The notes under the pieces: generated by a model
What the model was told of the DNA's origin: nothing
The model's input: the letters and a program-made list of their open reading frames with translations, nothing else
The model's database searches: none
Made by a program: the position numbers and the translations under genes
In this document: piece by piece, positions 3,993 to 61,419 of the stretch
How the letters are laid out: every line of letters starts with the position of its first letter
How positions within the stretch are numbered: the first letter of the stretch is position 1
Assembly: GCF_020723905.1 (NCBI RefSeq)
Contig: NZ_DYHZ01000007.1
Location: forward strand, 41,839 to 105,838
Direction: 5' to 3'
Length of the DNA stretch: 64,000 nucleotides
Source of the DNA: Anaerolinea thermophila
GTDB lineage: Bacteria; Chloroflexota; Anaerolineae; Anaerolineales; Anaerolineaceae

Positions 3993-4781
3993 ATGAGCGC
4001 AATCCTGCTGGATGGGCAGATGGTGCATTACGAGGTGCTGGGGCGGGGTCGCCCGGTCATCTTCCTGCACGGCTGGATTGGCTCCTGGCGTTACTGGATT
4101 CCCACCATGCAGGCGGCGTCCATTGCCTACCGCACCTATGCGCTGGATTTCTGGGGCTATGGCGATAGCGCCAAGGTGCCCGAACGCTACAACCTGGATG
4201 CGCAGGTTAACCTGCTGAAAGGGTTCATGGATCAAATGGGTATGGGGCGGGTTGCGCTGATTGGGCATGGATTGGGGGCTACGGTAGCGGTGATGTTTGC
4301 TCTGCGCAACCCGGACGTTGTCGATCGCGTTCTGGCGGTATCTTATCCGCTGGATGAGTCCCGCCTTCACCCCCGTTTGCGTACCCAGTCTCCCGAAGAA
4401 CTGGTGGACTGGCTGCTGGAGCGCAATCCTACCACCGAGCCGGTGCGCGTTGAAGCCGCCAAGACCGATCCGCGAGCCATTCAGGACTCGCTGGAGGGTT
4501 TAGCCACCATTGAAGCCCACGAAGCCAGTCAAAAACTGACCTGTGCCTGTCTGCTGGTGTATGGCGAAAAAGATCCTGTTGTCCCGGCACCATCAGATGA
4601 AGTCTTCCTGAGTCTGCCGTTCCAGACCCATGGGATTGTGTTTGACCAGTCAGGACATTTTCCCATCCTGGAAGAAAGCAGTAAGTTCAATCGCCTGGTG
4701 ATGGATTTCCTTTCGCTTGGGGTGGGGGAGAGTCCACGAATGTTGCAGTTGAAGGAAGAATGGAAACGCCGTGTGCGCTAA
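3993..4781 (+). CDS. Alpha/beta-hydrolase-fold protein lacking the nucleophile Ser (GHGLG)
   Basis: HGWIGSW oxyanion loop, ALDFWGYGDS, elbow GHGLG (codon GGA at 4269-4271), GEKD acid and GHF His. An AGGGAG RBS lies upstream. Confidence 0.9.
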   Translation: MSAILLDGQMVHYEVLGRGRPVIFLHGWIGSWRYWIPTMQAASIAYRTYALDFWGYGDSAKVPERYNLDAQVNLLKGFMDQMGMGRVALIGHGLGATVAVMFALRNPDVVDRVLAVSYPLDESRLHPRLRTQSPEELVDWLLERNPTTEPVRVEAAKTDPRAIQDSLEGLATIEAHEASQKLTCACLLVYGEKDPVVPAPSDEVFLSLPFQTHGIVFDQSGHFPILEESSKFNRLVMDFLSLGVGESPRMLQLKEEWKRRVR

Positions 4782-4798
4782 AGCAAGCCTCTCCAGAA

Positions 4799-4844
4799 AA
4801 ATCAAACGCCCTCTGCCTTGCAAAGACCAGAGGGCGTTTGATTT
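4799..4844. terminator. Bidirectional intrinsic terminator between convergent operons
   Basis: Perfect 17-bp inverted repeat AAATCAAACGCCCTCTG / CAGAGGGCGTTTGATTT with a 12-nt loop. Confidence 0.85.
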
Positions 4845-4859
4845 ACCAGAGGCGTGTTT

Positions 4860-5678
4860 TTATAAGCCGGAATAGGTTACGGTTGAGAGATCCCAGGCTT
4901 CGTGAATCTTCGGCACATCGCTGATCAAACGCCTGGTGTATGGGTGATGGGGGGTGAGGATAACCTGATCGGCAGAGCCGGATTCGACAATTTTGCCGCG
5001 CTCCATGATGTAAACGGTATCCGATACGTAATACGCCAGACCAATGTCGTGGGTGATGAAGATGATGGTCATGCCCACTTCGTCGCGCAGTTTCATTAAC
5101 ATATCCAGAATGGTGGCGCGCGAACAGGCATCAATCATCGAAGTGGGTTCATCGGCGATGAGAATCTTGGGCTTCAGCAGGAAGATGCGGGCAATCATCA
5201 GGCGTTGCATTTGCCCGCCCGAAAGTTCGAAGGGGTACTTGTTGGTCAACTCTTTGTATTCCAGGTTGACGAAACTGCATGCCTCGCTCATCAGTTCGAT
5301 CTTCTTCTCGCGGGGTAACCAGAAATCCCCCCGCATGCGGATACAGTCCAGCAGAAGGGTATCAATCTTATTGAAGATGTTATAGGCGGAATAGGGGTCT
5401 TGAAAGATTGCCTGAATGTTCTTCCAGTACTCCCGTTTCTTCCGCTGGGTGCTGATGTCCCGCTTCTTCCCCTGGAAGTAAATTTCCCCTTCGGTGGGGT
5501 TGAGAAGCCCTAAAAGCATTTTTGCCAGGGTAGTCTTGCCGCTCCCTGATTCGCCCACGATGGAACACACCTCGCCTGCACGAATTTCAAAATTCACGTG
5601 GTCTACCGCAATGGTTTTCTGTTTCCCCCAGCCGAACACTTTGGTCAGGTTTACCCCTTGCAAAACAGTGTCATTCAT
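4860..5678 (-). CDS. oppF: Opp/Dpp-family ABC transporter ATP-binding subunit (OppF-like)
   Basis: Walker A GESGSGKT, signature LSGGQMQR, Walker B ILIADEP, HPYT tail. Confidence 0.9.
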
Positions 5679-6678
5679 TTTGGTACACCTTTCTTAATTG
5701 TTCCTCAGGAAAGATACAGCGGTAAGCCCGGTTGTTGGCAGCCTCGCGCATATAAATGGATTGCACCCGGCATTCTGCCTGCACGTACTTACAGCGGTCG
5801 GCAAAACGGCATCCTTGAGGTGGACGCTTGAGGTTGGGCGGGGCGCCTGGAATGGCGGTTAATTTCACATCCCGCACTCCGCTTTCGGGTACGATGATGG
5901 AGCCCATCAAGCCTTTGGAGTAAGGGTGCAGCGGATCAAACACCACCTGTTGAGCTGTCCCCTGTTCAACAATTTGTCCGGCATACATCACCATGATATC
6001 GTCGGTGACATTGTAGAGCAGGGGCAGTTCGTGGGTGATAAAGATCATCGCCTTGACCAGTCCCTTCTCCATCATGTCTTTCAGCATCTTAATGACCATT
6101 TTCTGCGAGGTCACATCCAGAGCCGAAGAGGGTTCATCGGCAATCAGGACTTTCGGCGAAAGGATAACTGAGGTGGCAATCACCGTGCGCTGTTTCATCC
6201 CGCCAGATAGTTCCACCGGATATTTTTGAAGTACCTCAGCAGGCAATCCCAGTTCCTCGAAGCGCTGCCGAGCCATATCGTGGATTTCTTTCTTGGGCAC
6301 TTTGGGATCGTGAGCGTGAATAACATCCTCAATGAAGTTGATGATCTTCAACGTGGGGTTGAGTGCGTTCATTGCCGCCTGTGGGATATAAGCAATTTCT
6401 TTTCCCAATATTTTTCGGCGCACTTCATCAGGGTGCATTTTGGAGATGTTTTGCCCGTCAATGATGATATCGCCGCTGATGTAATGAAGCGGGGCAAAAT
6501 AATATCCCATCAGGCTCAGGGCAAGGGTAGATTTTCCACACCCGGATTCTCCCGCAATCCCTAAGGACTTGCCTTCTTCCACCTTCAAGGAGACCCGGTC
6601 TACGGCATACACATTTTCCCCAAAGCGGGTGACGTACTTTGTGGAGAGTTCTCGAACTTCCAGAATAACTTTTCCCAT
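5671..6678 (-). CDS. oppD: Opp/Dpp-family ABC transporter ATP-binding subunit (OppD-like)
   Basis: [17 protein letters not shown]-terminal Cys cluster GCRFADRC. Start moved to ATG 6678 (MGKVILEV) after a GAGG RBS. Confidence 0.9.
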
Positions 6679-45893: not shown

Positions 45894-47312
45894 TCAGGCT
45901 CTTTTCCTCGAAAAGAGCCACACCAGTCCTCCCCCTGCCACAGCCAGAATCAGGAATACCCACAGCCACGGCGCAGATGGAGTGCTCTGGGGGCTCGCTT
46001 CAGGGGTAGGCGTTGCCACCACGGGTGTAGGCGTTGGGCTGGGGGTAGCGGTAGGGGGATGCGGGGTAGCCGTAGGCGGTAGGGTCGGGCTGGGGGTGAA
46101 GGTGGGGGTGACCGGTGGAGTGACCTGTAGCAGAATCCGGTCACCGGGATGGATGATAGACGTGGCGTTCAGCCCGTTCCATACCATCAGGTCGTTTAAA
46201 CTTACCTCATACAGTCTGGCAATCCATGCCAGGGTTTCGCCACTCTGGACGGTGTGGTAATATTTGCCGTCACTGGCGGGGGTGAGTTTTTCGATGGGCG
46301 TCAACGGGCGCGGAGTTGGGCTGGGGGTGATGTTTCCGGGATAGATGATCAACTTTTGCCCGATTTGCAGGGGCCAGTCTGCCTGAATGCCGTTATATGC
46401 CAGCAGGGCATCTATGGTAGTACCGTAAGCCTCAGCGATTCGTATCAGAGTCTGATAGGCTTTGACTTCATGAACAATTCTTCCATCGGCATCGGGCGTG
46501 GCAATCTGGATCATCCATGCGGGTGTAGGAGTGGCATATCCCGCTGTATTACTGCCGGGGATGAACAACTTTTGTCCTACCTGTAAAGGAGCGTTGCGGG
46601 AGATGTTGTTCCAGATTTCCAGGTCCCGGATCGTTACTTTGTATGCCACGGCAATTGCCCACAGCGATTGCCCGTTTTGCACCACGTGAAACACCTTTCC
46701 GTCAGCATCCGGTGTAGCCACTTTGACCGGCACGATAATTTGTGGAACACCCGCGTTTACCGGCGTTTCACCCGGTTTTGGGGTGTAATTGGCGGGCGGG
46801 CGGTACTCGCCGCAGGATCTCCCTGCCACATAAGCCGCCTGAAGCACATAGTACGTCATGCCATTTGCTGCTTTGGCAACTCCTGCACCTACATGACAGT
46901 AGGCTGGATTGACAGCCGGAATCATGTGGTCAGGGTCTGCCCATGCCAGCATAATTTCGTCAATGGTGAATGTGCTGCCGACAGCAAAATTTTCGGTGGC
47001 GTAAACTTTCGCGCCCCCGCCATATCCTGCTGATTGCAATCGCCCGGACACGTTACCGATATGCCAGGACATCTGATTCGCTGCCATGATTTCAGCGGTT
47101 GCCTGGGCTACGGCATTGATGATGGGGTCTTCAATCAGGGGCGATAGTCCATTCGACACCCGCAGAGTATTCATGGCAAGAATCAGATCGTAAGCGGTAA
47201 CGCTCGACTGCGGGCTGAAGTTGGCTTTTTCTGCCTGAACCGGCACCGTTGAGTGAAACGAAGCCGCCAGGATGCCAGAGAGAAGGATCAAGCGTATCCA
47301 GATGGTTTTCAC
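45894..47312 (-). CDS. Secreted CAP/SCP + 3xLysM protein with a Pro/Thr linker and C-terminal membrane anchor
   Basis: Signal peptide; CAP motifs (LNTLRVSNGLSPL, SWH, TENFA, PDH, VGAGVA); three LysM repeats (GQSLWAIA, QTLIRIA, GETLAWIA); TM followed by SRKRA. Confidence 0.9.
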   Translation of the reverse strand: MKTIWIRLILLSGILAASFHSTVPVQAEKANFSPQSSVTAYDLILAMNTLRVSNGLSPLIEDPIINAVAQATAEIMAANQMSWHIGNVSGRLQSAGYGGGAKVYATENFAVGSTFTIDEIMLAWADPDHMIPAVNPAYCHVGAGVAKAANGMTYYVLQAAYVAGRSCGEYRPPANYTPKPGETPVNAGVPQIIVPVKVATPDADGKVFHVVQNGQSLWAIAVAYKVTIRDLEIWNNISRNAPLQVGQKLFIPGSNTAGYATPTPAWMIQIATPDADGRIVHEVKAYQTLIRIAEAYGTTIDALLAYNGIQADWPLQIGQKLIIYPGNITPSPTPRPLTPIEKLTPASDGKYYHTVQSGETLAWIARLYEVSLNDLMVWNGLNATSIIHPGDRILLQVTPPVTPTFTPSPTLPPTATPHPPTATPSPTPTPVVATPTPEASPQSTPSAPWLWVFLILAVAGGGLVWLFSRKRA

Positions 47313-47351
47313 GCCGTAATTATAACGGGAAAGTCAAGGCTTTTTCGAGCC

Positions 47352-48227
47352 TCAGTCATGGTAATAAATTGCCATGTTGCCGAGTACCTTCCAGGAGTTT
47401 TCGAATACCTCAATGGGAACATCGTAAAACGCGCCATTGCTGATATACCGAAGGTGTGTTTTGCTGTAACCCGTGACCAGAACCGCATGCTCGTATGCCG
47501 CCACGATGACGGTGTTGCCTTCTTTGTCGGTATACTCATAAGGCACGCCCCCAACCACATTGCCAATCACCCAGGCAATCACCGGTTGATCGTTTGCCAG
47601 TTCGGCTTTCATTTCCTCTACGGACCAGCCTTTCACCGCGCGTGCGGGAAGACCATAACGGTTTAATAAAGCCGCGACCGGTGGAGCATGGACACCATAT
47701 CCGTAAGGGGGAACCTGTCCCCACGGCGCGTTTACATCGCCTACGAAGCCTTTTTCTGGATTATCCGATCGGGGTAACTCAAACTGAAAGTTGTACTCCG
47801 AGATGGTTACACCAAAGTATGCCGCCCAATCGGTAGCGACCGCCGCTTCACAACTCAATGAAAAATATTGAGGATGTCCGGAAATTTTGCGGATGAAATG
47901 CTCTTCGGGTAGCGCTGGCGGGGGTGGTTCTGTGGCTGTGGCAGTTGGGGTAGGAGATGGAGGAATGGGAGTGGCAGTCGGTGGGATGGGCTGAAAAGGC
48001 GTTGCGGTTTGTGTTGGGCGAGGGGCAAGGGTTGGGGTAGAAAACATTCCCAGTAACGAGGCTCCCGCACCCATTCCGCCCTGCAGGCTTGAACCAGGCA
48101 GGGAACCATTTCCTGCCGGAAATCCCAGAGAAGGTTCGCGGGAAGCCGTTTCCATTCCGGTGCAGGTGGTCAGGAAGAGACATATCAGAACGGAGAGGAA
48201 ACAACGGAATGGGATTGGTTTGGGCAT
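47352..48227 (-). CDS. C39-like cysteine peptidase lipoprotein
   Basis: Lipobox LTTC, Pro/Thr linker, Q..SLSCEAA (Cys), EHAVLVTGY (His). Confidence 0.82.
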   Translation of the reverse strand: MPKPIPFRCFLSVLICLFLTTCTGMETASREPSLGFPAGNGSLPGSSLQGGMGAGASLLGMFSTPTLAPRPTQTATPFQPIPPTATPIPPSPTPTATATEPPPPALPEEHFIRKISGHPQYFSLSCEAAVATDWAAYFGVTISEYNFQFELPRSDNPEKGFVGDVNAPWGQVPPYGYGVHAPPVAALLNRYGLPARAVKGWSVEEMKAELANDQPVIAWVIGNVVGGVPYEYTDKEGNTVIVAAYEHAVLVTGYSKTHLRYISNGAFYDVPIEVFENSWKVLGNMAIYYHD

Positions 48228-48496: not shown

Positions 48497-49513
48497 ATGA
48501 ATGCGAGGCAATCGAATCAAAATGCAGTGAGGCTTTCTTTACCTTCCAAAGGGAGGCTCGCCGAGGATGCGCTGGCTTTTTTACAATCGTGCGGTTTGAG
48601 GGTATATAAACCCAATCCCCGTCAGTATGAAGCCACCATTCCTGCTTTGCCGGATCTGACTGTCCTGTTTCAGCGCCCTGCCGATATTGTGGTGAGTGTA
48701 CGCGATGGCAGTGTGGATTTTGGAATTACCGGTATTGATGTCATCGAAGAGCGCCGGGGAGAGAACGGCAATGTGATGGTGCTCCATGATGCGCTGGGGT
48801 TTGGCGCCTGTGCACTTTGTCTGGCTGTGCCGGAAGCCTGGAGCGGAGTAGAAACTGTGGCGCATTTACGTCAATATGTGGAGCAGTTGGGGCGTCCTCT
48901 TCGGGTTGCCACCAAGTATCCGGTGCTGACCGCCCGGTTTTTGCGCGAGGCTGGTATTTCTCATGTGCTCATCTCCGCAGAGGGGACGCTGGAAACCGCT
49001 CCCGCCATTGGATATGCGGATATGATCTCGGATCTGGTCTCTTCCGGTCAGACTCTGCGAGATAACCGCCTGCGTCCGCTAACCGATGGCGTGATTCAGC
49101 CTTCTCAGGCAGCCCTGATTGCCAATCGTTCCTCACTGCAACGTTCTCCCCAGGCACTGCAAATTGCCCGCCAGTTGCTGGAATACATTGAAGCCTACCT
49201 TCGCGCTCGCGATGAAGTTGCCATTTTTGCCAACATGCGGGGCACCTCGCCCGAGGAACTTGCCGCGCGTATCTTTACCCAACCCACTATTGCCGGTTTG
49301 CAGGGACCAACGATTTCCCGGGTCATTGTGCGTTCAGGAGATCCTAACTGGTATGCGGTTAATGTGATTGTCCCGCGATCGCGTTTATTCCAGGCCATCA
49401 GCGAACTCCGCGCAATTGGCGGAAGCGGCGTTGTGGTGGTGCCGGTCAACTATATTTTTGAAGAAGAACCACCACGTTATACTGCCATGCTCAAATCGCT
49501 GGAAGAATTGTAG
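48497..49513 (+). CDS. hisG: ATP phosphoribosyltransferase (long form)
   Basis: LPSKGRL, DFGITGID, LGFGAC, ATKYP, GTLETAP, DLVSSGQTL, and a C-terminal regulatory domain. Confidence 0.96.
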   Translation: MNARQSNQNAVRLSLPSKGRLAEDALAFLQSCGLRVYKPNPRQYEATIPALPDLTVLFQRPADIVVSVRDGSVDFGITGIDVIEERRGENGNVMVLHDALGFGACALCLAVPEAWSGVETVAHLRQYVEQLGRPLRVATKYPVLTARFLREAGISHVLISAEGTLETAPAIGYADMISDLVSSGQTLRDNRLRPLTDGVIQPSQAALIANRSSLQRSPQALQIARQLLEYIEAYLRARDEVAIFANMRGTSPEELAARIFTQPTIAGLQGPTISRVIVRSGDPNWYAVNVIVPRSRLFQAISELRAIGGSGVVVVPVNYIFEEEPPRYTAMLKSLEEL

Positions 49514-49524
49514 AGGAGGAAGAT

Positions 49525-50847
49525 ATGTTGAGAAAATTAAACGTAGCCGAAGCCCGGGAGACCCTGCTGAAACGGGCTTCACTGGATGAGGTTGAAGTTT
49601 CTCCGGTAGTTCTGGAGCGTACTGCCGGGTTATTGGGTGAGCCTCTTTCGCCGGAGCAAGCCGTGACCCGCATTTTGAAAGATGTGCGCCAGCGCGGGGA
49701 TACTGCCCTGCGGGAGTGGATGCAAAAACTGGATGGCGTGACATTGAACACATTCCGCGTTCCAAAAGAAGATATTCAATCTGCACTTCAGACCCTGAGC
49801 GATGCGCAGTTAAATGCCTTGCGCCTTGCCGCCGAGCGCATTCGCCGGTTTCACCAGGCACAGCCGCTGACTTCCTGGTTAACCCAGTCCCTTGGAGGTA
49901 CACTGGGACAACTGGTGCGCCCCATTCGCCGGGTAGGAGTGTATGTGCCGGCAGGGAGTGCGCCGCTTCCCTCTTCCGTGCTGATGTCTGTCATTCCGGC
50001 ACAGGTTGCCGGTGTGCCGGAGATTGTTGTGGTGGCTCCCCCTGTGCGCCAGACCGGGAAAGTGGATCCTGTCATTCTGGCGGCATGTGCGCTGTGCGGG
50101 GTGGATGAGGTGTATGCGCTGGGAGGCGCGCAAGCCATTGCTGCTCTGGCTTACGGAACTGAAAGCATCCCTCCGGTAGATAAAATTTTCGGCCCCGGCA
50201 ACCTCTTTGTGACTCTGGCAAAAAAGCAGGTCTTTGGGGTGGTGGGCATTGATGGACTGGCGGGACCCACGGAGACAATGGTGATTGCCGATGACTCCGC
50301 TAACCCGGAGTGGGTGGCGGCAGACTTGCTGGCTCAGGCGGAACATGATCCGCTGGCTTCTGCCATTTTGCTGACCCCCTCAGAATCCCTGATTGCTCAG
50401 GTTCAGGAAGCCGTCACCCGTCAATTGCGGGAACGCCAGCGCGCAACTATCATTCAGCAATCACTGGAGTTCCGCAGTGGCGCTGTTCTGACCATTGATC
50501 TGGAAGAAGCCGTGCGCATTGCCAATGAGTTTGCCCCTGAGCATCTGTGTTTGTCGGTACGCGATCCCTGGGCGCTTGTCCCAAAGATTAACGCCGCGGG
50601 TGGCATTTTTGTTGGCGAACACAGTTTCGAAGTCCTTGGGGACTATGTAGCAGGTCCCAGCCATGTCATGCCTACCGGCAGAACTGCCCGCTTTGCTTCT
50701 CCATTGAATGTGTGGGATTTTGTCCATCTGATTCACCTTGTGGCTCTGGATGAAGCCACCACGCAAGAAATTGCCCCGGCAGCATCCGTGATTGCCGAGC
50801 GGGAAGGGTTAGATGCACATGCTTTCTCTGCGAGGTGCCGATGTTAA
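49525..50847 (+). CDS. hisD: Histidinol dehydrogenase
   Basis: GGAQAIAALAYG, GPGN, AGPTE, QAEHD, APEHL, DYVAGPSHVMPT. Confidence 0.97.
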   Translation: MLRKLNVAEARETLLKRASLDEVEVSPVVLERTAGLLGEPLSPEQAVTRILKDVRQRGDTALREWMQKLDGVTLNTFRVPKEDIQSALQTLSDAQLNALRLAAERIRRFHQAQPLTSWLTQSLGGTLGQLVRPIRRVGVYVPAGSAPLPSSVLMSVIPAQVAGVPEIVVVAPPVRQTGKVDPVILAACALCGVDEVYALGGAQAIAALAYGTESIPPVDKIFGPGNLFVTLAKKQVFGVVGIDGLAGPTETMVIADDSANPEWVAADLLAQAEHDPLASAILLTPSESLIAQVQEAVTRQLRERQRATIIQQSLEFRSGAVLTIDLEEAVRIANEFAPEHLCLSVRDPWALVPKINAAGGIFVGEHSFEVLGDYVAGPSHVMPTGRTARFASPLNVWDFVHLIHLVALDEATTQEIAPAASVIAEREGLDAHAFSARCRC

Positions 50848-51941
50848 GAGGCTCTTCCCGCTTCAATGATTTTCCCCCTTATACCCCCATTGAGCCGTAT
50901 GAGGTTCTCTCGGCGCGCATGGGCATCCCGATGGAACGCATTGTCAAACTGGATGCCAACGAGAACCCTTATGGACCCTCGCCAAAGGTGCGGGAAGCGC
51001 TGGCGTCTTTGCCGTTTGTGCATATTTACCCGGACCCTGAAAGCCGTTCCCTGCGTCAGGCGTTGGCGGATTTCACCGGAGTACCTGCGGAAAATCTCAT
51101 GGCAGGGGCAGGCGCTGATGAACTGATTGACCTGATTTTACGGGTCATGATTGAGCCGGGTGATTGTGTGCTGACCTTTCCGCCCACTTTTGGCATGTAT
51201 GCTTTCGATACCCGTCTGAACGCAGGCCAGGTGGTGGAAATTCCCCGCCGGGCAGATTTTTCCATCGACCTTGAACGGGCGCTCGACGCAGTCAGGCGAT
51301 ATCGCCCGCGGGTGATTTTCCTGACTGCGCCTAACAACCCCGATGGGCAACTCCCCCGTTTCGAAGAGGTGGAGGCATTGCTGGCAGGCGATGCTCTGGT
51401 GGTGATTGACGAAGCCTACATCGAATTTGCCAGCGCGGGCGGCAGGCTGGGTGAGCGCTTGAGCCGCATTCGGCAGGTGGTTGAGCGGGAAAATCTGGTT
51501 GTGCTGCGCACCTTCAGCAAATGGGCGGGGCTGGCGGGGTTGCGGGTTGGTTATGGCGCTTTTCCAAACTGGCTCCTGCCAGTGCTGTGGAAAGCCAAAC
51601 AGCCCTATAACGTCAACGTTGCCGCCTCTGCTGCCGCGCTTGCCTCATTGCAGGATCTGGACTATCTGGCGGAAAATGTGGAAAAGATTCGCCAGCAGCG
51701 TCAGGACCTCTTTGAGCAACTATCTGCCGTTTCTTTCCTGCAGCCTGTGCCTTCAGATGCCAATTTCATCCTTTGCAGGGTGGAAGGAAAAGATGCGCGC
51801 GGACTGAAGCAGTCCCTGATGCAAGGGGGAATTTTCATCCGTTATTACGATACCCCTCTCTTGCGGAATTTCATCCGTATTTCTGTCGGACGTCCACAGG
51901 ATCATGAGGTGTTGATGGACGCGCTCCGCCGATTGGCATAA
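50841..51941 (+). CDS. hisC: Histidinol-phosphate aminotransferase
   Basis: KLDANENP, PNNPDG, DEAYIEF, RTFSKWAGLAGLRVGY. ATG 50841 overlaps the hisD stop. Confidence 0.96.
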   Translation: MLRGSSRFNDFPPYTPIEPYEVLSARMGIPMERIVKLDANENPYGPSPKVREALASLPFVHIYPDPESRSLRQALADFTGVPAENLMAGAGADELIDLILRVMIEPGDCVLTFPPTFGMYAFDTRLNAGQVVEIPRRADFSIDLERALDAVRRYRPRVIFLTAPNNPDGQLPRFEEVEALLAGDALVVIDEAYIEFASAGGRLGERLSRIRQVVERENLVVLRTFSKWAGLAGLRVGYGAFPNWLLPVLWKAKQPYNVNVAASAAALASLQDLDYLAENVEKIRQQRQDLFEQLSAVSFLQPVPSDANFILCRVEGKDARGLKQSLMQGGIFIRYYDTPLLRNFIRISVGRPQDHEVLMDALRRLA

Positions 51942-51953
51942 CAGGAGGAACTT

Positions 51954-53096
51954 ATGAAATGTGCCATTGTAGTTTTTGAAGGCTTTTCCAGTCTGGATTT
52001 TTACATGTTCGTAGAGCCGCTTCTTTCCCGCAAAAACACGGCTCTGAAAGCGCTGGATATTTGTGCCCGGGTGGGGGAGGTATACGACTCCAGTGATTTG
52101 CACGTCTTTGCTTCCCGAATTGCTCCGGATTTGTCCGGTTACGATTGGGTGGTCGTCCCCGGCGGGGAAGGGGTCTGGGCGTTGCTCGACAACCCTGCTT
52201 TCCTGCGCTGGTTGGGCACAGCCGCCGATGCCGGGCACATTGTTGCGTTCCGGGAAGGAATTTTGCTGGCATCAGCGGCAGGGTTAATGAGAGGCAAAAC
52301 CGTTGCATCGCTTCCCGGGTGGGAGGAGCGGCTTCGGCAGTCAGGCGCGATTCCCGTGGTGCAATCCAGCACCATGGATGCCGGTTGCCTCACCGCCGTA
52401 GACCGTCAGGCAGTGCTGGCGCTCGGGGAAGCCATTGCCTCGTCCATTGCCCTGAATCAACCTCTCCGTCTGATTCAGGGCGGCTCGGGTGAAGCTGTCT
52501 TCTCCTCACGTGAAGTCACCGTAGAGCGCAAAACGGGCGAGACGCAGGTACAGGTACGCCTGAATCTGGATGGCAGTGGAAAGTGCCAGGTCCAAACCGG
52601 GTTGGGTTTCTTAAACCACATGCTGGAGCAGGTTGCCGTTCACGGTCTGTTTGATCTGACGCTTCAAGCCAGCGGTGACTTGCAGGTTGATCCGCACCAC
52701 ACGGTAGAAGATGTCGCACTTACGTTGGGCATGGCATTTCAGCAAGCCCTGGGGGAACGGAAAGGCATCGTGCGTATGGCATCGTTTACAACACCGATGG
52801 ATGAAAGCCTGGCGTTTGTGGCGCTGGATTTTTCCGGCAGACCATTCTGTGTCTTTGATACCGTCTGGACTGCCCCGGAGGTGGGCGGAATTCCTGTGAC
52901 ATTAATTGAACATTTCTTCCAGAGTTTTGCCCAGATGGCTCGCTGTACCCTGCATGCCCGGGTACAGTATGGAAAAGATAATCATCACAAAGCCGAAGCG
53001 CTTTTCAAAGCCTTTGCCCGGGCATTAACCCAGGCTGTCCAGGTGGATGCCCGGCGTCAGGGTAAAGTGCCCTCCAGTAAGGGGATGCTGGTTTAG
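51954..53096 (+). CDS. hisB: DJ-1/PfpI-like domain fused to imidazoleglycerol-phosphate dehydratase
   Basis: The N-terminal 170 or so residues are DJ-1-like (AIVVFEGF..D, YDWVVVPGG, AGLMRGK). The C-terminus is IGPD (RKTGETQV, FLNHML, HHTVED, PMDE, NHHKAEALFKA). It is one uninterrupted ORF. Confidence 0.92.
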   Translation: MKCAIVVFEGFSSLDFYMFVEPLLSRKNTALKALDICARVGEVYDSSDLHVFASRIAPDLSGYDWVVVPGGEGVWALLDNPAFLRWLGTAADAGHIVAFREGILLASAAGLMRGKTVASLPGWEERLRQSGAIPVVQSSTMDAGCLTAVDRQAVLALGEAIASSIALNQPLRLIQGGSGEAVFSSREVTVERKTGETQVQVRLNLDGSGKCQVQTGLGFLNHMLEQVAVHGLFDLTLQASGDLQVDPHHTVEDVALTLGMAFQQALGERKGIVRMASFTTPMDESLAFVALDFSGRPFCVFDTVWTAPEVGGIPVTLIEHFFQSFAQMARCTLHARVQYGKDNHHKAEALFKAFARALTQAVQVDARRQGKVPSSKGMLV

Positions 53097-53110: not shown

Positions 53111-53719
53111 ATGTCCGAAGTCATTCTGATTGACGCGGGAACGGGCAATTTGCGTTCTGTTGCCAATGCCCTGCTCCGCCTGAATGTCTCCCTTCGGGTA
53201 ACCCAGAGCCCTGCCGATTGGAAGGGTCAGCGAGCAGTATTGCCGGGGGTGGGAGCCTTTTCAGCCTTCATGGAGGGTTTACGTCAAAACGGCTGGATTG
53301 AGGTGCTGAATGAACATGTTCAGCGCAGATATCCACTGCTGGGAATTTGCGTAGGGATGCAGGCACTTTTTCAATGGAGTGAGGAGGGCGGACAGGTCGC
53401 CGGACTGGGCTTGTTGCCCGGACAGGTGAAGCGTTTTCCCTCCCTCGAAGGATTGAAAATTCCTCACACCGGCTGGAATCAGTTGCGGTTTTGCCGTCCT
53501 TCGGGTTTGTTTCAAAACCTGACTGAAGGCGAGTATGTGTATTTCAACCATTCTTATTACTGTGTGCCGGAGCGAGAGGAAGATTGCATTGCCCGGACAG
53601 ATTATGGCTTAACCTTTTGCAGCGCAGTGCAGCGAGATGCTCTTTGGGGAGTGCAGTTTCATCCTGAAAAGAGCCAGACCGTTGGTAAACAGATTCTGGA
53701 GAATTTCTTGAGCCTATGA
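53111..53719 (+). CDS. hisH: Imidazole glycerol phosphate synthase, glutaminase subunit
   Basis: LPGVGAF, LGICVGMQ, PHTGWN, YFNHSY, QFHPEKS. Confidence 0.97.
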   Translation: MSEVILIDAGTGNLRSVANALLRLNVSLRVTQSPADWKGQRAVLPGVGAFSAFMEGLRQNGWIEVLNEHVQRRYPLLGICVGMQALFQWSEEGGQVAGLGLLPGQVKRFPSLEGLKIPHTGWNQLRFCRPSGLFQNLTEGEYVYFNHSYYCVPEREEDCIARTDYGLTFCSAVQRDALWGVQFHPEKSQTVGKQILENFLSL

Positions 53720-54465
53720 ACGCATCCTTCACTATTTTTCCCGCCATTGATTTGCGCGCCGGACAGGTGGTGCGGTTGCAAGAAGGCGATCCGGCGCGCC
53801 AAACCGTGTTCAGCCATGATCCTGCAGAAATGGCGTATCGTTTCCTCAGCCAGGGCGCGCGCTGGCTTCACGTGGTCAATCTGGATGGAGCATTTGGTGA
53901 GGAGCGCTCGGCGCGCCAGAATCTGCGTGCCATCGAACAGATGCTGGAAATCACACCGGAATTTTCTGCCAGTTTGCAGACAGGCGGGGGCATGCGTTCG
54001 CTCCAGTCCATCCGAGAGTTGCTCGTCCGTGGCGTTCGGCGGGTTGTGGTTGGAACGATGGCAATGGAACGCCCTGATTTGCTGGAACAAGCCATCCGGG
54101 AATGGGGAGCCGAACGCATTGCCGTCAGCCTGGACGCGCGCGGCGGAATGGTGTATGTACGCGGATGGCAGGAAAGCGGGGGAATTTCAGTTGAAGATGC
54201 TGCCCGTCTCATTCAATCCTGTGGGGTTCGCTGGGTGGTGTTCACCGATATTTCCCGGGATGGTATGCAAACCGGACTGGCGCTGGAGCAGGCGAGCGCT
54301 CTGGCTGACAGGTTTGGTTTTCAGGTGATTGCCTCAGGGGGAGCGCGCAGTCTTGAGGATGTGCGCCAGGCTCGTGAGCGGGGACTGGCTGGGGTAATTC
54401 TCGGGCGCGCGCTTTACGAAGGGGCAATTCTGCTGGAAGAGGTATTGCAGGAGGAAAGATGTTAG
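53716..54465 (+). CDS. hisA: ProFAR isomerase
   Basis: [40 protein letters not shown]. Confidence 0.96.
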
Positions 54466-55238
54466 CCCGACGCATCATCCCGTGTATGGATATTGCCAAC
54501 GGACGTATTGTCAAGGGGGTGAACTTTGTTAACCTGCGGGATGCCGGAGATCCGGTGGAGCAGGCACAGATCTATGATCAGGCAGGCGCCGATGAACTGG
54601 CGTTTCTGGATATTTCTGCCACGCAGGAAGGGCGGGAAACCGTGCTGGACATGGTGCGCCGTGTTGCCGATGTTGTTTTTTTGCCTTTTACCGTGGGGGG
54701 AGGTATCCGCACGGTGGAAGATGTCCGCCGCATCCTGCTGGCAGGCGCCGATAAAGTGACCATCAACTCTGCGGCAGTGCGCAACCCGGATTTGATCAGC
54801 GAATGCGCCGACCGCTTTGGCAGTCAATGCATTGTTCTGGCGGTGGATGCCCGGCGGGTCACTCCACTCGCGGAGCCCCCCCGCTGGGAGGTGGTGATTC
54901 AGGGAGGGCGCGTGCCCACTGGCAGAGATGTTCTGGAATGGGTTGTAGAAGGGGTGGAACGCGGCGCAGGGGAAATTCTCCTGACCAGCATGGATGCCGA
55001 TGGCACACGTCAGGGGTTCGACCTTTTACTCACCCGCCAGGTGGCTGAAGCAGTCTCCGTGCCGGTCATTGCCTCTGGTGGGGCAGGAGCCATAGAGCAT
55101 TTTGCCCGGGTATTGACCGAAGGCAAAGCGGATGCTGCGCTGGCGGCTTCGCTCTTCCATGATGGGTTTTTGCGCATTCCTGAATTAAAACAAGCCCTGT
55201 GGGAACAGGGTATTCCCGTGCGGAGGGTCCAGGGATGA
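54459..55238 (+). CDS. hisF: Imidazole glycerol phosphate synthase, cyclase subunit
   Basis: [40 protein letters not shown]. Confidence 0.97.
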
Positions 55239-55552
55239 AGGAAATTCGTTTCGATGAACGTGGGCTTATCCCTGCTGTTGTGCAGGATGCCCGCACCGGT
55301 CAGGTGTTAACCCTGGCGTACATGAACCGCGAATCGTTGCAGAAGACCCTTGAACTGGGTGAGACGGTGTTCTGGTCGCGCAGTCGCCAGCAATTATGGC
55401 ACAAAGGGGAAACTTCCGGGAACACTCAGCGAGTGGTAAAAATTATGCTGGATTGCGATGGCGATGCGCTACTGGTTCAGGTCATCCCATCGGGACCGGC
55501 ATGTCATACCGGGGCGGTTTCGTGCTTTTTTCAAAATCTGGAGGGAGAATGA
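55235..55552 (+). CDS. hisI: Phosphoribosyl-AMP cyclohydrolase
   Basis: [32 protein letters not shown] 55235 overlaps the hisF stop. Confidence 0.96.
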
Positions 55553-55833
55553 ACATACAGGAACTGTACAGGATTATTTGTGAGCGCCGCGATCACCCTG
55601 TGCCGCAATCCTATACAGCAAAGTTACTGGCGCAGGGGGAAGATGAAATCCTCAAAAAAATTGGGGAAGAAGCCGTCGAGGTGATTCTGGCAGGAAAAGC
55701 CCAGGGAGATCAGCGGTTAATTGAAGAGATTGCCGACCTGACTTACCATACCCTTGTTTTACTGGCAAGCCGGGGACTTACCCCTCAACAGATAGCCAAT
55801 GAACTGGAGAAACGTCATCGGACTCCCCGTTGA
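55549..55833 (+). CDS. hisE: Phosphoribosyl-ATP pyrophosphatase
   Basis: [27 protein letters not shown] 55549. Confidence 0.95.
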
Positions 55834-56327: not shown

Positions 56328-57299
56328 TTATTTTACCAAATTCAGTTTGCGAAAGAGAACAGGTGCGAATACGGAAACCCAACTGCCAATCAAAGCATAA
56401 CGGATATACCGCAGTATATAACTGATGGCGCTGGCATCATCGGGGAAAATTTTACCCAGCCCGTACCACAGAATGATTAAGCCTGCCAGTCCCAGCAGGT
56501 ATCGCAGAAGGCGTTGTTCCCAGGTGCCTCCGGCAGGTATCCTTCCCCGGCGAATGAGCCATGCCGAGCCCGTTCCAAACCCAAACAGGATTCCTCCCAG
56601 CGTGAATCCACCTTCGATATTGCGTGGATCAATGGGAGTGTCGGGAGTTTGTTGTTGTGCCGTCTTCACCCATTCGGCAGGGAGCGTCCAGTCTCCTAAC
56701 AGGACGTTGCTCAGGGTGATTCCGGCAATCACCACAAGGGAAGCAAGAAAAATCACCATGCCAAGATTGCGCAGGGATTGGCGGCCTGCCCAGCGGAGAA
56801 TCGCGGGTTCCAGTCGAACAAACAGCCAGACGAGAACAGCCCCAATTGCCCAGCCAGCCAGCACATCCCCGGCAAAATGCATTCCCAGATAGATGCGTGA
56901 AAGCCCGATTAATACGATGATTGCGAGACTCAACCACCGAAACCAGCGCCAGATGACCTGTGTGGATGCCAGCCCCCACAGAGCCGCGGCGTTCTGGGCG
57001 TGCCCTGAGGGCATCCCGAAGGAGGTCTCGCTGGAAAGCGCTTTCACCTCGGTGCTGACCCAGTACGGACGCGGCGCATGGAATGCCAGTTTTGCCATCC
57101 CGTTCACCCAGTTGGTCAGTACCAGCATCCAGCCCAGTCGCATGCCCAGTCTGGGGTCAACGCTCCAGTACAGCGCCGGCATAACGATGAGAAAAAATTC
57201 TTCTGTCCCCAGGAAAGAGAAAAACTGCATGATCGGGGCAAGCCATATACCCAGCGACTGAAAGAACAGATTAATGGGGATTTGAAGGTTTTCTAACAT
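56328..57299 (-). CDS. PAP2-family membrane phosphatase
   Basis: KLAFHAPRP, PSGH, SRIYLGMHF..D. ATG 57299. Confidence 0.92.
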   Translation of the reverse strand: MLENLQIPINLFFQSLGIWLAPIMQFFSFLGTEEFFLIVMPALYWSVDPRLGMRLGWMLVLTNWVNGMAKLAFHAPRPYWVSTEVKALSSETSFGMPSGHAQNAAALWGLASTQVIWRWFRWLSLAIIVLIGLSRIYLGMHFAGDVLAGWAIGAVLVWLFVRLEPAILRWAGRQSLRNLGMVIFLASLVVIAGITLSNVLLGDWTLPAEWVKTAQQQTPDTPIDPRNIEGGFTLGGILFGFGTGSAWLIRRGRIPAGGTWEQRLLRYLLGLAGLIILWYGLGKIFPDDASAISYILRYIRYALIGSWVSVFAPVLFRKLNLVK

Positions 57300-57368
57300 G
57301 GGATGTTTCCTCAGCAGAGATTGTCTAAGTCGTTGACGGAACCGTTTAACGTATTGTACACTGAGAAT

Positions 57369-59687
57369 ATGCGTGAGACGAAAGAACGGATGTGGGATTT
57401 TCCGGCAGGCGTGCTGTTCTGGCTGGCGCTTTTCTTTGCGGCTGTGCGGGTGCAAACCACCAACTGGACGGTGAATCTGGGATTAATTCAGGTTGAAGTC
57501 TTCCTTTCTGTGACGATCGGTTTAGCCCTGGGGGCAAGCCGTTTTCATCCGCGTTGGAGCACCCTGATGGGGTTTATCTATACCATAACAATTCTTCCAT
57601 GGACGCTGGCGGGGCTTTTACGTGCGGAAACCTGGCTGGACCGGGTGTTAATCATGGGAAGCCGCCTGCAGAGCGCCATCGTATCGATTGTTCAAAACCA
57701 GCCGGTGCGCGATCCTTTCTTTTTTCTGGGATTGATGTGTTTGATTTTCTGGCTGGCGGGAATCATTGGGGGGTATCAACTTGCCCGGTATGGACGTCCC
57801 TGGGTGGGATTGAGCCTGGCAGGGATCATGGTGCTGATCGTGGATTATTCCTTCGAAATGTATGCCGCACCCGATACCGGTTCCGCGTTCAGTTTTCTGT
57901 ACTTTCTGGTAGCGCTGATCCTCATTGGACGGGTCTTTTATGTGAATGCCCATTCCGAATGGAAACGGCGCGGTGAAATGGTGGAAAGCGAAGTGGGTTT
58001 TGATATCAGCCGGGGGGCGGCGCTGGTGGCGTTGTTGCTGGTTTTAATGGGCTGGTACAGTCCTGCAGTGGTAAACTCTTTCATCCCCGGAACCAGAGAA
58101 CAGCGCGAACTCTCCCAGCGCTTCAGCCGATTCCGCGAGCGCATTTCCAACGCGGTATTTTCGCTTAACAGCCCGGCACCGGTGTATGTCGAAAGTCTGG
58201 GAGAAACGCTGGCGCTGGGGCAGGGTTCTGAATTGAGCGATGATGAAGTCCTGCGCATCAAAACCGAACGCGGCAGGCTGGCAGGAGGGCGTTTTTACTG
58301 GGCGGGGCGCATCTATGATTCCTATCTGGATGGACAGTGGGTGGCAACCGATGTTTCCCCTCAGGGTTTCGGGGCAGGGTATGCGCTGGCTGAATATAAC
58401 TGGGAAGGGCGTACTGAAATCGGGGTTGACATCACTAATCGCATTTCTCTTTTGCGTACGCTGTATTTTCCGGGTGCCCCCGTGTCTATCAACCGGGTGG
58501 TCACGGCAATGGTGGGCCCGGATGGCACAGATGGGCCCGATATCACCGCCTTGATTCTGGATCCACCTCTGGGGGCAGGTGAGTCTTACTCTCTGCGGGT
58601 CTCAGTGCCGGTTCCTACTCAGATCCAGTTACAAGCCTCAGCGGATCTTCCTTACCCCGATTGGGTAAAAGAACGCTTTTTGCAATTACCTCCCGATTTT
58701 TCGCCGCGCATTCAGCGTCTGGCGATGCAGATTACTGCGGACGCGAATACTCCCTTTGAAAAAGCAGATGCCATTACCCGCTGGTTGCGCACCAGCATTA
58801 ACTATCAAACCGTCATCCCGCCGATTCCCGAAAATGCAGATCCCATGGAGTGGTTTTTGTTTGATTATCGGGCGGGATTTTGTAATTACTATGCCACTGC
58901 TGAGGTATTGATGCTGCGCGCTGTGGGAGTGCCAGCAAGGATGGTGGTGGGTTATGCCGAGGGTACGTATCTGCGCGATGAAGAAGTCTTCTCGGTGATT
59001 GGCAAGGATTATCATGCCTGGCCCGAGGTGTATTTCCCCGGCGTAGGATGGGTGCCTTTCGAGCCTACGGCATCACAACCCGAGTTGCGCTTTTCTCTGG
59101 GGGAAGGTGAACCTTCGCCGGGAGGTGCTATCATCCCGCCCACGCCGGTTATCCCCAGCGGAGCAGGTCCGGTGGGTGAGGTTGAGCCTCCGACTCTTCT
59201 CGAAGAACCGCCTACCCCTGCAGAGGTAGCAGGGCGCTGGTTGAGCGTTCTTCTGGGAGTGGCGGCGGCAACCGCGCTGGCACTGGGTCTGCGCCGCTGG
59301 CAAACCACCATTTTGAAAGAAACCCCCTTCCCGGTTTGGCTGGAACGGGTGCTGGAAAAACGCGGTTTCCACCCCCCTGCATGGCTGAAACGCTGGTCAG
59401 AGCGTGTTGTACGCACGCCCATGGAACGGCTTTTTGCCGTTGTCCCCGAAATGTTGAGCGTATGGGGAATCCCCCCGAAAGTCGAAATGACCCCTGCCGA
59501 GCAGGTGGCGCGCCTGAAAAATGTTTTACCAGAACTGGCTGAACAGGCTCAGGTGTTGCTGGAGGAATATCAGTTCGCCATGTATAGTCAGCGGAGATAT
59601 AATATATCTCGGGCTCGTCAAGCCGCCGCAACATTGCGGTTACGCGGGTATCAACGCTGGATTGCGCGGCTGATGGGAATTCAGTGA
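57369..59687 (+). CDS. TgpA-like membrane protein with a transglutaminase-like domain
   Basis: Multi-TM N-terminus, GFCNYYA (Cys), YHAWPEVY (His), WVPFEPT, and a C-terminal DUF4129-like region. Confidence 0.88.
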   Translation: MRETKERMWDFPAGVLFWLALFFAAVRVQTTNWTVNLGLIQVEVFLSVTIGLALGASRFHPRWSTLMGFIYTITILPWTLAGLLRAETWLDRVLIMGSRLQSAIVSIVQNQPVRDPFFFLGLMCLIFWLAGIIGGYQLARYGRPWVGLSLAGIMVLIVDYSFEMYAAPDTGSAFSFLYFLVALILIGRVFYVNAHSEWKRRGEMVESEVGFDISRGAALVALLLVLMGWYSPAVVNSFIPGTREQRELSQRFSRFRERISNAVFSLNSPAPVYVESLGETLALGQGSELSDDEVLRIKTERGRLAGGRFYWAGRIYDSYLDGQWVATDVSPQGFGAGYALAEYNWEGRTEIGVDITNRISLLRTLYFPGAPVSINRVVTAMVGPDGTDGPDITALILDPPLGAGESYSLRVSVPVPTQIQLQASADLPYPDWVKERFLQLPPDFSPRIQRLAMQITADANTPFEKADAITRWLRTSINYQTVIPPIPENADPMEWFLFDYRAGFCNYYATAEVLMLRAVGVPARMVVGYAEGTYLRDEEVFSVIGKDYHAWPEVYFPGVGWVPFEPTASQPELRFSLGEGEPSPGGAIIPPTPVIPSGAGPVGEVEPPTLLEEPPTPAEVAGRWLSVLLGVAAATALALGLRRWQTTILKETPFPVWLERVLEKRGFHPPAWLKRWSERVVRTPMERLFAVVPEMLSVWGIPPKVEMTPAEQVARLKNVLPELAEQAQVLLEEYQFAMYSQRRYNISRARQAAATLRLRGYQRWIARLMGIQ

Positions 59688-59703
59688 AGCGGAGAGGTCT
59701 TCC

Positions 59704-61419
59704 TTGATTAGTTCTCTGACAACATCCACACTGGTATCGCTGGATGCGCAGTTAGCCGCGCTTATCGCGCTGTTTAATGAAGTTCATTCCTACATTTCCG
59801 TACACCGCCCCGCTTTTATCCCCGACCGTGTCTATCAGGCGGTGGGGGAGATGGCGAAAGAACTCCCTGAATTACGCAAACAGGTCAACGCGCTGGAAGG
59901 GGAGTGGCGTAACCTGCGCGCTCTGGCGCAGGTGGGACAGGTAGTTAATTCCTCGCTCGAACTGGATCAGGTCTTGCAGGTGGTGATGGACACCATCATC
60001 CGCCTGACCGGTGCGGAGCGGGGCTTTTTGATGATGCGCAACGCACACTCCGGCGAACTGGAAGTGCTCATCGGGCGAAACTGGGATCGGGAAACCCTCT
60101 CCAAATCTGAGTTTGCTGTCAGCCGCACGATTATCAATCGGGTGATCCGGGAAGGACAACCCATCCTGACCACGGATGCGCAGGAAGATCCCCGCTTTCA
60201 CACCCAGGATAGCGTTATTTCTCATAATCTACGGGCTATCCTGTGCGTGCCTTTGTGGGTCAAACAGGAACTGGTGGGAGTTATCTATGCCGATAACCGC
60301 GTGCGCAGTGGGGTGTTTACCCGCCGTCATCTTGAATTGCTCACGGGATTTGCCCATCAGGCGGCGGTTGCCATCGAGAATGCCCGTCTGTTTGCCTCGG
60401 TTCGCCAGACCCTGGATCAGGTTACCCAGTTGAAAACCCTGATGGACAATGTCCTGGCGTCCATTCCCAGTGGAGTGATTACCACCGACCCGGATAAACG
60501 CATTTTGCTGTGCAACCGCGCTGCCGCAGAAATTCTTCACCAGCCCATATCTGCTCTCGAAGGGGCAAACCTCACCACCATCTTGCCCGCGCTGGATGAA
60601 CATGTTCATCAAGTGTTACGGTTTGGACACACCGTGATGGGTTTAGAGATTTTCCCCGAATTGAAGGGCAAAGGACGGGTGGCATTGCGGTTTAATCTCT
60701 CCCCTTTACGCAATGAACAGAAAGTTTTACAGGGTGTTGCCATTGTAGTGGAAGACCTGACCGAACAGCGCCGCCTTGAAGCCCAGCAGAGGCTGTTTGA
60801 ACGCATGGTTTCTCCAGCGGTGATTGAACAGATTGACACTGAAGAAATCAAGCCCGGCGGGCAGAAGCGAGAAATCACTACCCTTTTTGCCGATATTCGC
60901 GGATTTACCAGTTATGGCGAAATGGTCTCGCCGGAAGAACTGGTGCAGGTGCTTAACCGTTATCTGGGGCTGGCAGCGGAGATCATTCTTGCCGAAGGGG
61001 GCACGGTGGATAAATTCCTCGGCGATGCTGTCATGGCATGGTTCAATGCCCCTGTGCCTCAACCCGATCATGCCTTACGGGCGGTTCGGGCGGGGCTTCG
61101 TCTGAAGGAAGCCGTGGAACGGTTGAATCGAGAAATGCCTGTGGCGGCAAAACTCTCTTTTGGTGTGGGAATTCATACAGGCGAAGCCGTTCTGGGGTTG
61201 ATCGGTACCGAAAAACGCATGGACTACACTGCCATTGGTGATTGTGTGAACACTGCCAGGCGTATTCAGGAAAACGCCAGTGCGGGGCAGGTGCTTATCA
61301 GCCGCAGTGTGTACCAGCGGATTGCCGATTCTGTCGAGGTGGGTGGGGTTTTCCCCATCCAGGCGTATGGGAAGCGTCAACCGGTAGTGGTAGTAGAAGT
61401 GTTAAAATTAAAGTCGTGA
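59704..61419 (+). CDS. GAF-PAS class III adenylate cyclase
   Basis: GAF ending AVAIENARLF, PAS, then LFADIRGFT, DKFLGDAVM (the Lys points to ATP specificity), YTAIGDCVNTARR. Confidence 0.92.
   Translation: MISSLTTSTLVSLDAQLAALIALFNEVHSYISVHRPAFIPDRVYQAVGEMAKELPELRKQVNALEGEWRNLRALAQVGQVVNSSLELDQVLQVVMDTIIRLTGAERGFLMMRNAHSGELEVLIGRNWDRETLSKSEFAVSRTIINRVIREGQPILTTDAQEDPRFHTQDSVISHNLRAILCVPLWVKQELVGVIYADNRVRSGVFTRRHLELLTGFAHQAAVAIENARLFASVRQTLDQVTQLKTLMDNVLASIPSGVITTDPDKRILLCNRAAAEILHQPISALEGANLTTILPALDEHVHQVLRFGHTVMGLEIFPELKGKGRVALRFNLSPLRNEQKVLQGVAIVVEDLTEQRRLEAQQRLFERMVSPAVIEQIDTEEIKPGGQKREITTLFADIRGFTSYGEMVSPEELVQVLNRYLGLAAEIILAEGGTVDKFLGDAVMAWFNAPVPQPDHALRAVRAGLRLKEAVERLNREMPVAAKLSFGVGIHTGEAVLGLIGTEKRMDYTAIGDCVNTARRIQENASAGQVLISRSVYQRIADSVEVGGVFPIQAYGKRQPVVVVEVLKLKS

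Follow-up and report, generated by a model that had tools for sequence, protein, structure and literature searches.

To our knowledge, the sole fusion partner known for HisB is the HAD-family histidinol-phosphatase that precedes imidazoleglycerol-phosphate dehydratase (IGPD) in HisNB of Escherichia coli and Salmonella. A review of his-gene fusions states that at least seven his genes underwent fusions, names hisNB and hisIE, yields no DJ-1 term in the passages searched and, among the Chloroflexi, samples Dehalococcoidetes only (PMC1963479). Here, we analyze a 64,000-nucleotide stretch of the Anaerolinea thermophila assembly GCF_020723905.1 (contig NZ_DYHZ01000007.1, positions 41,839 to 105,838 of the forward strand; hereafter, the window), in which hisB encodes a 380-amino-acid protein that joins IGPD to a domain of the DJ-1/PfpI family. 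The arrangement resembles HisNB in its N-terminal accessory domain of about 165 amino acids followed by a C-terminal IGPD, in the hisB position within a hisGDC[B]HAF(IE) operon and in the narrow, patchy phylogenetic distribution of the fusion (for hisNB, PMC1963479). It differs in that the partner has a DJ-1/class-I-glutamine-amidotransferase-like fold without the DxDxT motif, and, unlike the HAD phosphatase, is not an enzyme of the histidine pathway and lacks catalytic residues. A full-text literature search returned no paper on an IGPD-DJ-1 fusion, and the architecture appears to be undescribed; the databases label the fusion proteins plainly 'HisB'. A preliminary description of the locus, made from the sequence, had called the architecture non-standard, a judgement with which the passages searched in the review agree, and had proposed the domain as a possible new solution for the histidinol-phosphate phosphatase (HolPase) step. 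We favor another reading (with a probability of roughly 0.6): a catalytically dead, inherited DJ-1-like domain would be carried by an otherwise ordinary HisB, and the HolPase step would be supplied in trans by a HisN-type enzyme.

Both halves of the single open reading frame (ORF) were recognized by profile searches, as first described. Pfam places DJ-1_PfpI (PF01965) on residues 2-161 (34.2 bits, E 2.8e-8; gathering cut-off 26.6) and IGPD (PF00475) on residues 215-358 (205.7 bits, E 4e-61; cut-off 27), while the NCBIfam HisB equivalog NF002116 scores 283.6 bits (cut-off 269). The IGPD half retains both Mn-binding D-x-H-H-x-x-E motifs (DPHHTVED, residues 246-253, and DNHHKAEA, residues 342-349) in invariant alignment columns, matches the IGPD structures 6fwh, 2f1d and 4mu0 in Foldseek with template-modelling scores of 0.93-0.96, and is predicted to be a normal, active dehydratase. 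The AlphaFold2 model (built from 51 homologs) has a mean predicted local distance difference test score (pLDDT) of 90.9 and consists of two separate confident domains, the N-terminal one scoring mostly 93-98 per 10-residue block (79 at residues 21-30). Since the pLDDT drops below 50 at linker residues 174-183 and the predicted template-modelling score (pTM) is 0.55, fixed packing between the domains is not predicted; alignment gaps indicate that the linker varies in both length and sequence among the fusions. The ORF starts with ATG, and no in-frame ATG, GTG or TTG was found around residues 176-200, so that, for want of a start near its beginning, IGPD would be made only as part of the fusion.

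The best solved relative of the N-terminal domain (N-domain), in structure as in sequence, is the isocyanide hydratase (ICH, InhA) of Pseudomonas fluorescens. Foldseek ranked ICH first (6ni6/3non, E 3e-12, 26% identity), with further matches to PfpI and ThiJ-family structures, and phmmer against the PDB recovered it with an E-value of 1.4e-10, aligning 'vaFREGill' with 'tsVCTGslv' of ICH. Thereby Arg100, in the elbow A98-F99-R100-E101-G102, lies opposite the nucleophile Cys101 of ICH, which upholds the earlier claim that 'AFREG' stands in place of 'SVCTG' and Arg in place of Cys; the 'SVCTG' elbow and the 'TTH' string are common to ICH and the Cys-bearing relatives of the fusion. Relative to ICH, the window's protein carries Cys101->Arg, Thr102->Glu and His->Leu, lacks the C-terminal extension and is fused to IGPD. 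As for the active-site partners, the acidic D15 is kept (presumably the equivalent of helix-1 residues E18 in DJ-1 and D17 in ICH), but position 120 is Leu instead of His. A paralog search found no other member of this DJ-1 subfamily in the window's genome.

We aligned 113 full-length fusions, in which the elbow residue is Gly (59), Cys (40), Ser (5), Arg (4), Asn (4) or Ala (1); Arg is confined to the window's genus, where it occurs in merely two distinct species-level sequences. All 40 Cys forms combine the elbow 'SVC[TS]G' (or a close variant) with His120 ('A[TA]THP') and are invariant for T12, D15, R25, R138, G150 and V151, while R75 is found in 93% and T101 in at least 90% of them; they are predicted to hold an active site of the ICH/DJ-1 kind that is complete and has a pocket rich in arginine. 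The spacings within this Cys-type subfamily (D to R, +10; C to H, +20) echo what we take to be the E18/R28 and C106/H126 pairs of human DJ-1. The catalytic set (D15, R25, R75, C100-T101, H120, R138) is thus retained in 40 of the 113 fusions and lost in 73, the window's included. Among these Cys-less forms the residues of the fold core (C37, L60, D64, P69, G70, W86, G110, L157) are conserved and the catalytic positions are unconstrained. In the window's protein the substitutions are Cys100->Arg, Thr101->Glu, His120->Leu, Arg25->Ser, Arg75->Trp and Arg138->Ser, Asp15 alone being kept, and, compared with other fusions, the protein shows 30-45% identity in the N-domain and 60-70% in the IGPD domain. 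The closest non-fused relatives of the N-domain (33-38% identity) are stand-alone DJ-1/PfpI proteins of 193-195 amino acids with the signature 'DG[MV]T.LDF...SVCTG...ATTHP...MDYP'; among those read, most carry the residues that are invariant in Cys-type fusions and nearly all are catalytically intact, unlike the window's domain, and no link to the histidine pathway was seen in the gene neighbourhoods read. The members of the Cys-type subfamily that we noted are the fusions P0044 and P0060, those of genomes G926 and G837, and the stand-alone P0131, P0143 and P0152.

The tree of IGPD domains suggests that the catalytic set was lost more than once, as its well-supported branches force at least four changes in the Cys state, and these are best taken as losses because the regain of a seven-residue catalytic set is implausible. 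Gly forms (P0115, P0088) nest within Cys clades, and the Arg clade of the window lies nearest to Gly forms, the codon CGG being a single step from GGG. Unfused IGPDs nest within the window's clade as well (95% local support). One of them, P0096, is a genuine unfused hisB of 213 amino acids that begins 14 nucleotides after hisC, shares 73% identity with the IGPD domain of the window's protein and sits in a locus syntenic with that of the window up to the downstream PAP2 and transglutaminase genes. We verified a clean domain deletion for P0096 alone and left out P0111; P0097, a further apparent unfused IGPD among the fusions, was rejected: it is a fusion that a frameshift has cut in two, and its long-read contig is error-prone, with hisD split too. 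Taken together, the sequences point to an evolutionary series in which the fused domain passed from intact to dead (repeatedly) to deleted, and in which the N-domain would be dispensable over evolutionary time. At the level of sequence, the domain is therefore what the preliminary description had named as speaking against its own proposal, namely predicted to be inactive (the residues invariant in intact relatives are lost except D15) and dispensable (deleted in the syntenic P0096).

In the window's genus the N-domain is under purifying selection, with a constraint roughly two- to threefold weaker than that on IGPD. Against a syntenic relative with an 82% identical fusion (L098), the ratio of non-synonymous to synonymous substitution rates (dN/dS) was 0.12 for the N-domain (dN 0.146) and 0.047 for IGPD, at a dS of about 1.2 that is near saturation; for comparison, hisG, hisD and hisF gave ratios of 0.045-0.07 and hisH a dN of 0.126. 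Against a 97% variant (L109), the pN/pS ratio was 0.19 for the N-domain (5 non-synonymous and 9 synonymous changes) and 0.067 for IGPD. We stress that constraint alone does not prove a separate function, since it is expected of any domain that folds in cis with an essential enzyme.

The HolPase step most probably takes place in trans, through an unlinked HisN-type enzyme of the inositol monophosphatase (IMPase) family. The window's genome (99.96% complete) encodes, away from the his operon, the IMPase-family protein P0289, which scores 259.6 bits on the HisN equivalog TIGR02067 and 103 on the next family (SuhB/IMPase). Its best PDB matches are the histidinol-phosphatase of Mycobacterium tuberculosis (5yht/5zon) and 5eq7, which we take to be the HolPase of Medicago despite its PDB label 'Inositol monophosphatase'. 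Six motifs were validated by Kulis-Horn et al. (2017) to separate HisN from other IMPases, motif 5 being decisive (PMC5516325), and P0289 carries six of the six: KADSSPVTLAD, GEE, DPIDGTK, RGIPLY..L, GWGDAYGY (motif 5) and WDCAPF. Compared with the descriptions given there, its motif 5 is of the G-D-x-aromatic-x-aromatic type and position 219 is not Gly. With these six motifs P0289 lies closest to the IMPase-type HisN enzymes, namely those of Corynebacterium glutamicum and M. tuberculosis (5yht/5zon) and 5eq7, from which it differs in lying outside the his operon and below the equivalog cut-off. In an automatic annotation it would probably be listed as an inositol monophosphatase without further specification. 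Hence the claim that a HolPase is missing stands for the operon and fails for the genome, which holds, as judged from its motifs, a HolPase of a known kind, another of the findings that the preliminary description had named against its proposal. Two other candidates were rejected: the sole genomic match above cut-off to the HAD histidinol-phosphatase model TIGR01656 is GmhB, beside a heptose kinase, and the best match to the PHP-type model TIGR01856 (43.7 bits; cut-off 90.2) is the PHP domain of a 606-amino-acid PolX-like polymerase.

We assessed the co-occurrence of HisN with the fusion in the four GTDB genomes that carry it. Besides the window's genome, high matches to the HisN model were found in G962 (Arg type, 259.6 bits) and G926 (Cys type, 250.5 bits). 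Within the order, high-scoring HisN proteins (at least 240 bits) occur in 5 of 28 genomes, and at least seven genomes with an unfused hisB (G043, G055, G067, G218, G258, G274, G234) lack both a high-scoring HisN and a PHP enzyme. As the HolPase gap thus extends to genomes in which hisB is unfused, it seems to be a general feature of the order and is not linked to the fusion.

We reason that, within Anaerolineales, an ancestor fused a domain of the 'SVCTG...ATTHP...MDYP' subfamily to IGPD while that domain was still an active Cys-His enzyme, and that in the window's genus the loss of the catalytic set would have left a pseudoenzyme domain tethered through a flexible linker. Because the catalytic set is gone, the N-domain would be unable to perform the ancestral chemistry, and its role would be at most structural or ligand-binding. 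It may have been kept since, being translated in one chain with IGPD, an essential enzyme, it has to fold and remain soluble; the N-domains may pair as DJ-1 domains usually do, decorating or bracing the IGPD 24-mer (a putative structural role), and residual ligand binding is another possible reason for the retention.

Several observations weigh against this reading. P0289 falls 15 bits short of the curated HisN equivalog cut-off (275.15), and its assignment rests on sequence; in a genome profile search, the fused G837 (Cys type) showed neither a high-scoring HisN nor a PHP HolPase; and the losses were counted on a FastTree tree with 195 columns only. Moreover, the purifying selection implies that the N-domain is not freely decaying, which a specific ligand- or partner-binding function could explain, and most Cys-less forms keep S12, an acidic residue at position 15 and the pocket elements P69-G70, so that their pocket could still bind something.

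The same features would suit a Cys-less domain that acts as a ligand-sensing or regulatory module and lets a metabolite tune the activity of IGPD or the assembly of the 24-mer. For such non-enzymatic, ligand-binding use of the DJ-1 fold the sensor domains of the AraC-family regulators FtrA and GbdR offer a precedent, and these are the top NCBIfam models for the Cys-type relatives, even if far below the cut-offs (51-81 versus 425-480 bits; DJ-1 glyoxalase III is also among the best matches, likewise far below its cut-off). The purifying selection would fit as well, and so would the retention of S12, the PGG loop and an acidic residue at position 15 by most Cys-less forms. However, the window's protein has no helix-turn-helix domain, the Cys-less fusions have no conserved pocket (positions 75, 101, 120, 138 and 149-151 of the former one are unconserved), the linker is disordered and variable in length, the AlphaFold2 model (pTM 0.55) predicts no domain-domain interface, the long-form HisG with its regulatory C-domain already gives the pathway feedback, and a syntenic relative has deleted the domain, so we regard a regulatory role as unlikely.

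An equally doubtful scenario gives the role of a dedicated enzyme to a DJ-1/ICH-like domain that would have been recruited to IGPD and that about a third of the family still has in intact form. Its target would be a by-product of IGPD chemistry, either phosphorylated or reactive, and the Arg form of the window would be a decayed descendant left with scaffolding or binding on the 24-mer. As a candidate by-product one may speculate on a product formed by phosphate elimination from the enol intermediate or from imidazole-acetol phosphate, by analogy with methylglyoxal from dihydroxyacetone phosphate and with the hydrolysis of cyclic 3-phosphoglyceric anhydride by DJ-1. In some lineages the Cys-type domain could even serve as a Cys-based HolPase.

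It is highly improbable that the window's domain is an enzyme with new chemistry, in which Arg100, Glu101 and Asp15 replace the Cys-His pair. The selection on the domain and the conservation of the 'REG' elbow and the 'AVDR' string between the two species of the genus would agree with it, but Arg occurs in two species-level sequences only, Gly stands at this position in the closest relatives, and a single step separates CGG from GGG; the pattern is better explained by drift once function had been lost than by a new design.

The proposal that the N-domain is a new HolPase, or a phosphate-binding module that fills the gap in the operon, drew on the absence of a HolPase gene from the operon and on the enterobacterial precedent, in which the N-terminal partner of IGPD is a HolPase; one may add that two arginines, Arg100 and Arg151, are found within the former pocket or close to it and that several Anaerolineales genomes (the fused G837 included) have no recognizable high-scoring HisN or PHP HolPase. 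Nevertheless, we found it unsupported. A HisN-type candidate with the six diagnostic motifs is present here, and HisN-type proteins accompany the fusion in G962 and G926; the gap is equally common in relatives with an unfused hisB; and in a syntenic relative the domain is missing altogether. Searches of the N-domain against Pfam and NCBIfam gave no match to a HAD, PHP or IMPase phosphatase model (TIGR01261 and TIGR01656 included), the Cys-less forms share no conserved set of polar residues, and Arg100 is limited to one genus. Its sole C-x5-R string (C145-LTAVD-R151), considered as a P-loop of the protein tyrosine phosphatase type, is a chance match in an unconserved column where the sister species has Tyr145. 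The sequence of the N-domain shows no arrangement of residues that a phosphatase would be expected to have, and the domain is a highly improbable candidate for the 'missing' HolPase.

That a lost stop codon or a frameshift merely joined two genes in the assembly has a negligible probability: the long-read metagenome contig L110, in which the fusion is frameshifted into two ORFs and hisD is split too, would lend itself to such doubts, but the fusion ORF runs uninterrupted in independent assemblies, namely in four contigs with the identical protein, in the 97% variant of another assembly (L109), in the 82% variant found on 24 contigs (L098) and in the closed genome G962.

In the protein database more than 100 clusters (41-97% identity) carry both Pfam domains, among them the RefSeq protein WP_082390372.1 of the cultured Ornatilinea apprima (labelled simply 'HisB'). 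Relatives thus retain the fusion, as the preliminary description had asked, and it is not unique to this assembly. Among species-representative genomes it is rare (1 of 301 in a sample of the phylum, 1 of 401 in the class and 4 of 401 in the order), the four genomes of the order sample being the window's, the closed one-contig G962 of the same genus, G926 (same family, another genus) and G837 (another family). Suspected divergent fusions in G175, G082 and G027 were discarded, as Pfam finds IGPD alone in these long stop-to-stop frames around an unfused hisB, and a contig scan with the full-length alignment was abandoned as a census, since it keyed on universal IGPD motifs and recovered nothing but IGPDs of many different phyla; its best named matches belong to Anaerolineales and Leptolinea, which places the window's organism in Anaerolineales. 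A single long-read metagenome project supplied two contigs with hisD in two ORFs (L096, 5509-6832; L110, 2140-3463), and in L110 the DJ-1-IGPD fusion is likewise split by a frameshift (4577-5741); these are probably indel errors that mimic gene fission. A different HisB fusion, of an aminotransferase (HisC, PF00155) with IGPD, was seen in other Chloroflexota lineages (P0114, P0118 and P0119, about 580-590 amino acids), and long frames of this type also occur in genomes of families f39 and f110. Most small-genome (2.0-2.9 Mb) members of the window's own family had no IGPD match at all (G076, G130, G148, G184, G202, G242, G266 and others), which suggests, from gene content, that this prototrophic lineage has close relatives auxotrophic for histidine.

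The operon consists of hisG, D, C, B, H, A, F, I and E, as first listed (Table 1), and no phosphatase gene was found within it. The order hisG-D-C-[B]-H-A-F-I-E recurs in the loci of relatives (L096, L097, L098, L110, L111) and in every fusion neighbourhood read (P0060, P0021, P0003 and the frameshift-split P0097). The genes hisI and hisE (window 55199-55833, + strand) are separate and overlapping, not a hisIE fusion, here and in all related loci examined. Just downstream, on the opposite strand (56328-57455, -), a PAP2-superfamily gene encodes the sole phosphatase near the operon; its position is kept in L098, L110 and L111, and its product is probably a membrane lipid-phosphate phosphatase without relation to the histidine pathway. 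The flanks (45894-48227, -, and 57303-61419, +) encode LysM/CAP-domain, Peptidase_C39_2-like, transglutaminase-core and GAF-PAS-nucleotidyl-cyclase proteins, and most of these flanking genes are syntenic in L097, L098, L110 and L111, a conservation that speaks for an operon inherited vertically in the lineage.

Table 1. Features of the hisB fusion, its operon and the unlinked HisN-type candidate (window positions unless stated otherwise).
Feature	Position	Strand	Basis
hisB ORF: DJ-1-like domain, linker and IGPD, 380 amino acids	51954..53096 (including stop)	+	ORF call, Pfam, NCBIfam
N-terminal DJ-1/PfpI-fold domain, residues 1-165, ICH-like, predicted catalytically degenerate	51954..52448	+	Pfam PF01965, Foldseek, phmmer, pLDDT, conservation
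Codon CGG (Arg100), nucleophile-elbow position	52251..52253	+	sequence, alignment, phmmer against the PDB
Inter-domain linker, residues 166-185	52449..52508	+	predicted disordered (pLDDT), alignment gaps
IGPD domain, residues 186-380	52509..53093	+	Pfam, NCBIfam, alignment, Foldseek
Ribosome-binding site AGGAGGA, 4 nucleotides 5' of the hisB ATG	51943..51949	+	direct sequence reading
hisC stop TAA, 12 nucleotides ahead of the hisB ATG	51939..51941	+	direct sequence reading
hisG, long form with regulatory C-domain	48497-49513	+	upstream operon gene
hisD	49525-50847	+	upstream operon gene
hisC	50835-51941	+	upstream operon gene
hisH	53111-53719	+	downstream operon gene
hisA	53716-54465	+	downstream operon gene
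hisF	54459-55238	+	downstream operon gene
hisI	ends 55552	+	downstream operon gene
hisE	about 55549-55833	+	downstream operon gene
P0289, IMPase-family candidate HisN, 272 amino acids, outside the window, unlinked to the his operon	G000:C5:266795-267532 = L002:1486-2304	-	HisN model, motifs

Gene fusion in the evolution of pathways has a classic example in HisB, to which the DJ-1 family adds a second, unrelated partner. Within one order and at one operon position the fused domain can be seen intact, dead (through at least four separate losses) and deleted, and thus offers a natural series for asking why a dead domain stays attached to an essential enzyme. For annotation, the locus counsels caution: a gap in an operon is a poor basis for inferring a new phosphatase, as the HolPase step is commonly unlinked. 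The more interesting target lies in the Cys-bearing relatives, which provide a lead to the substrate of an uncharacterized DJ-1 subfamily.

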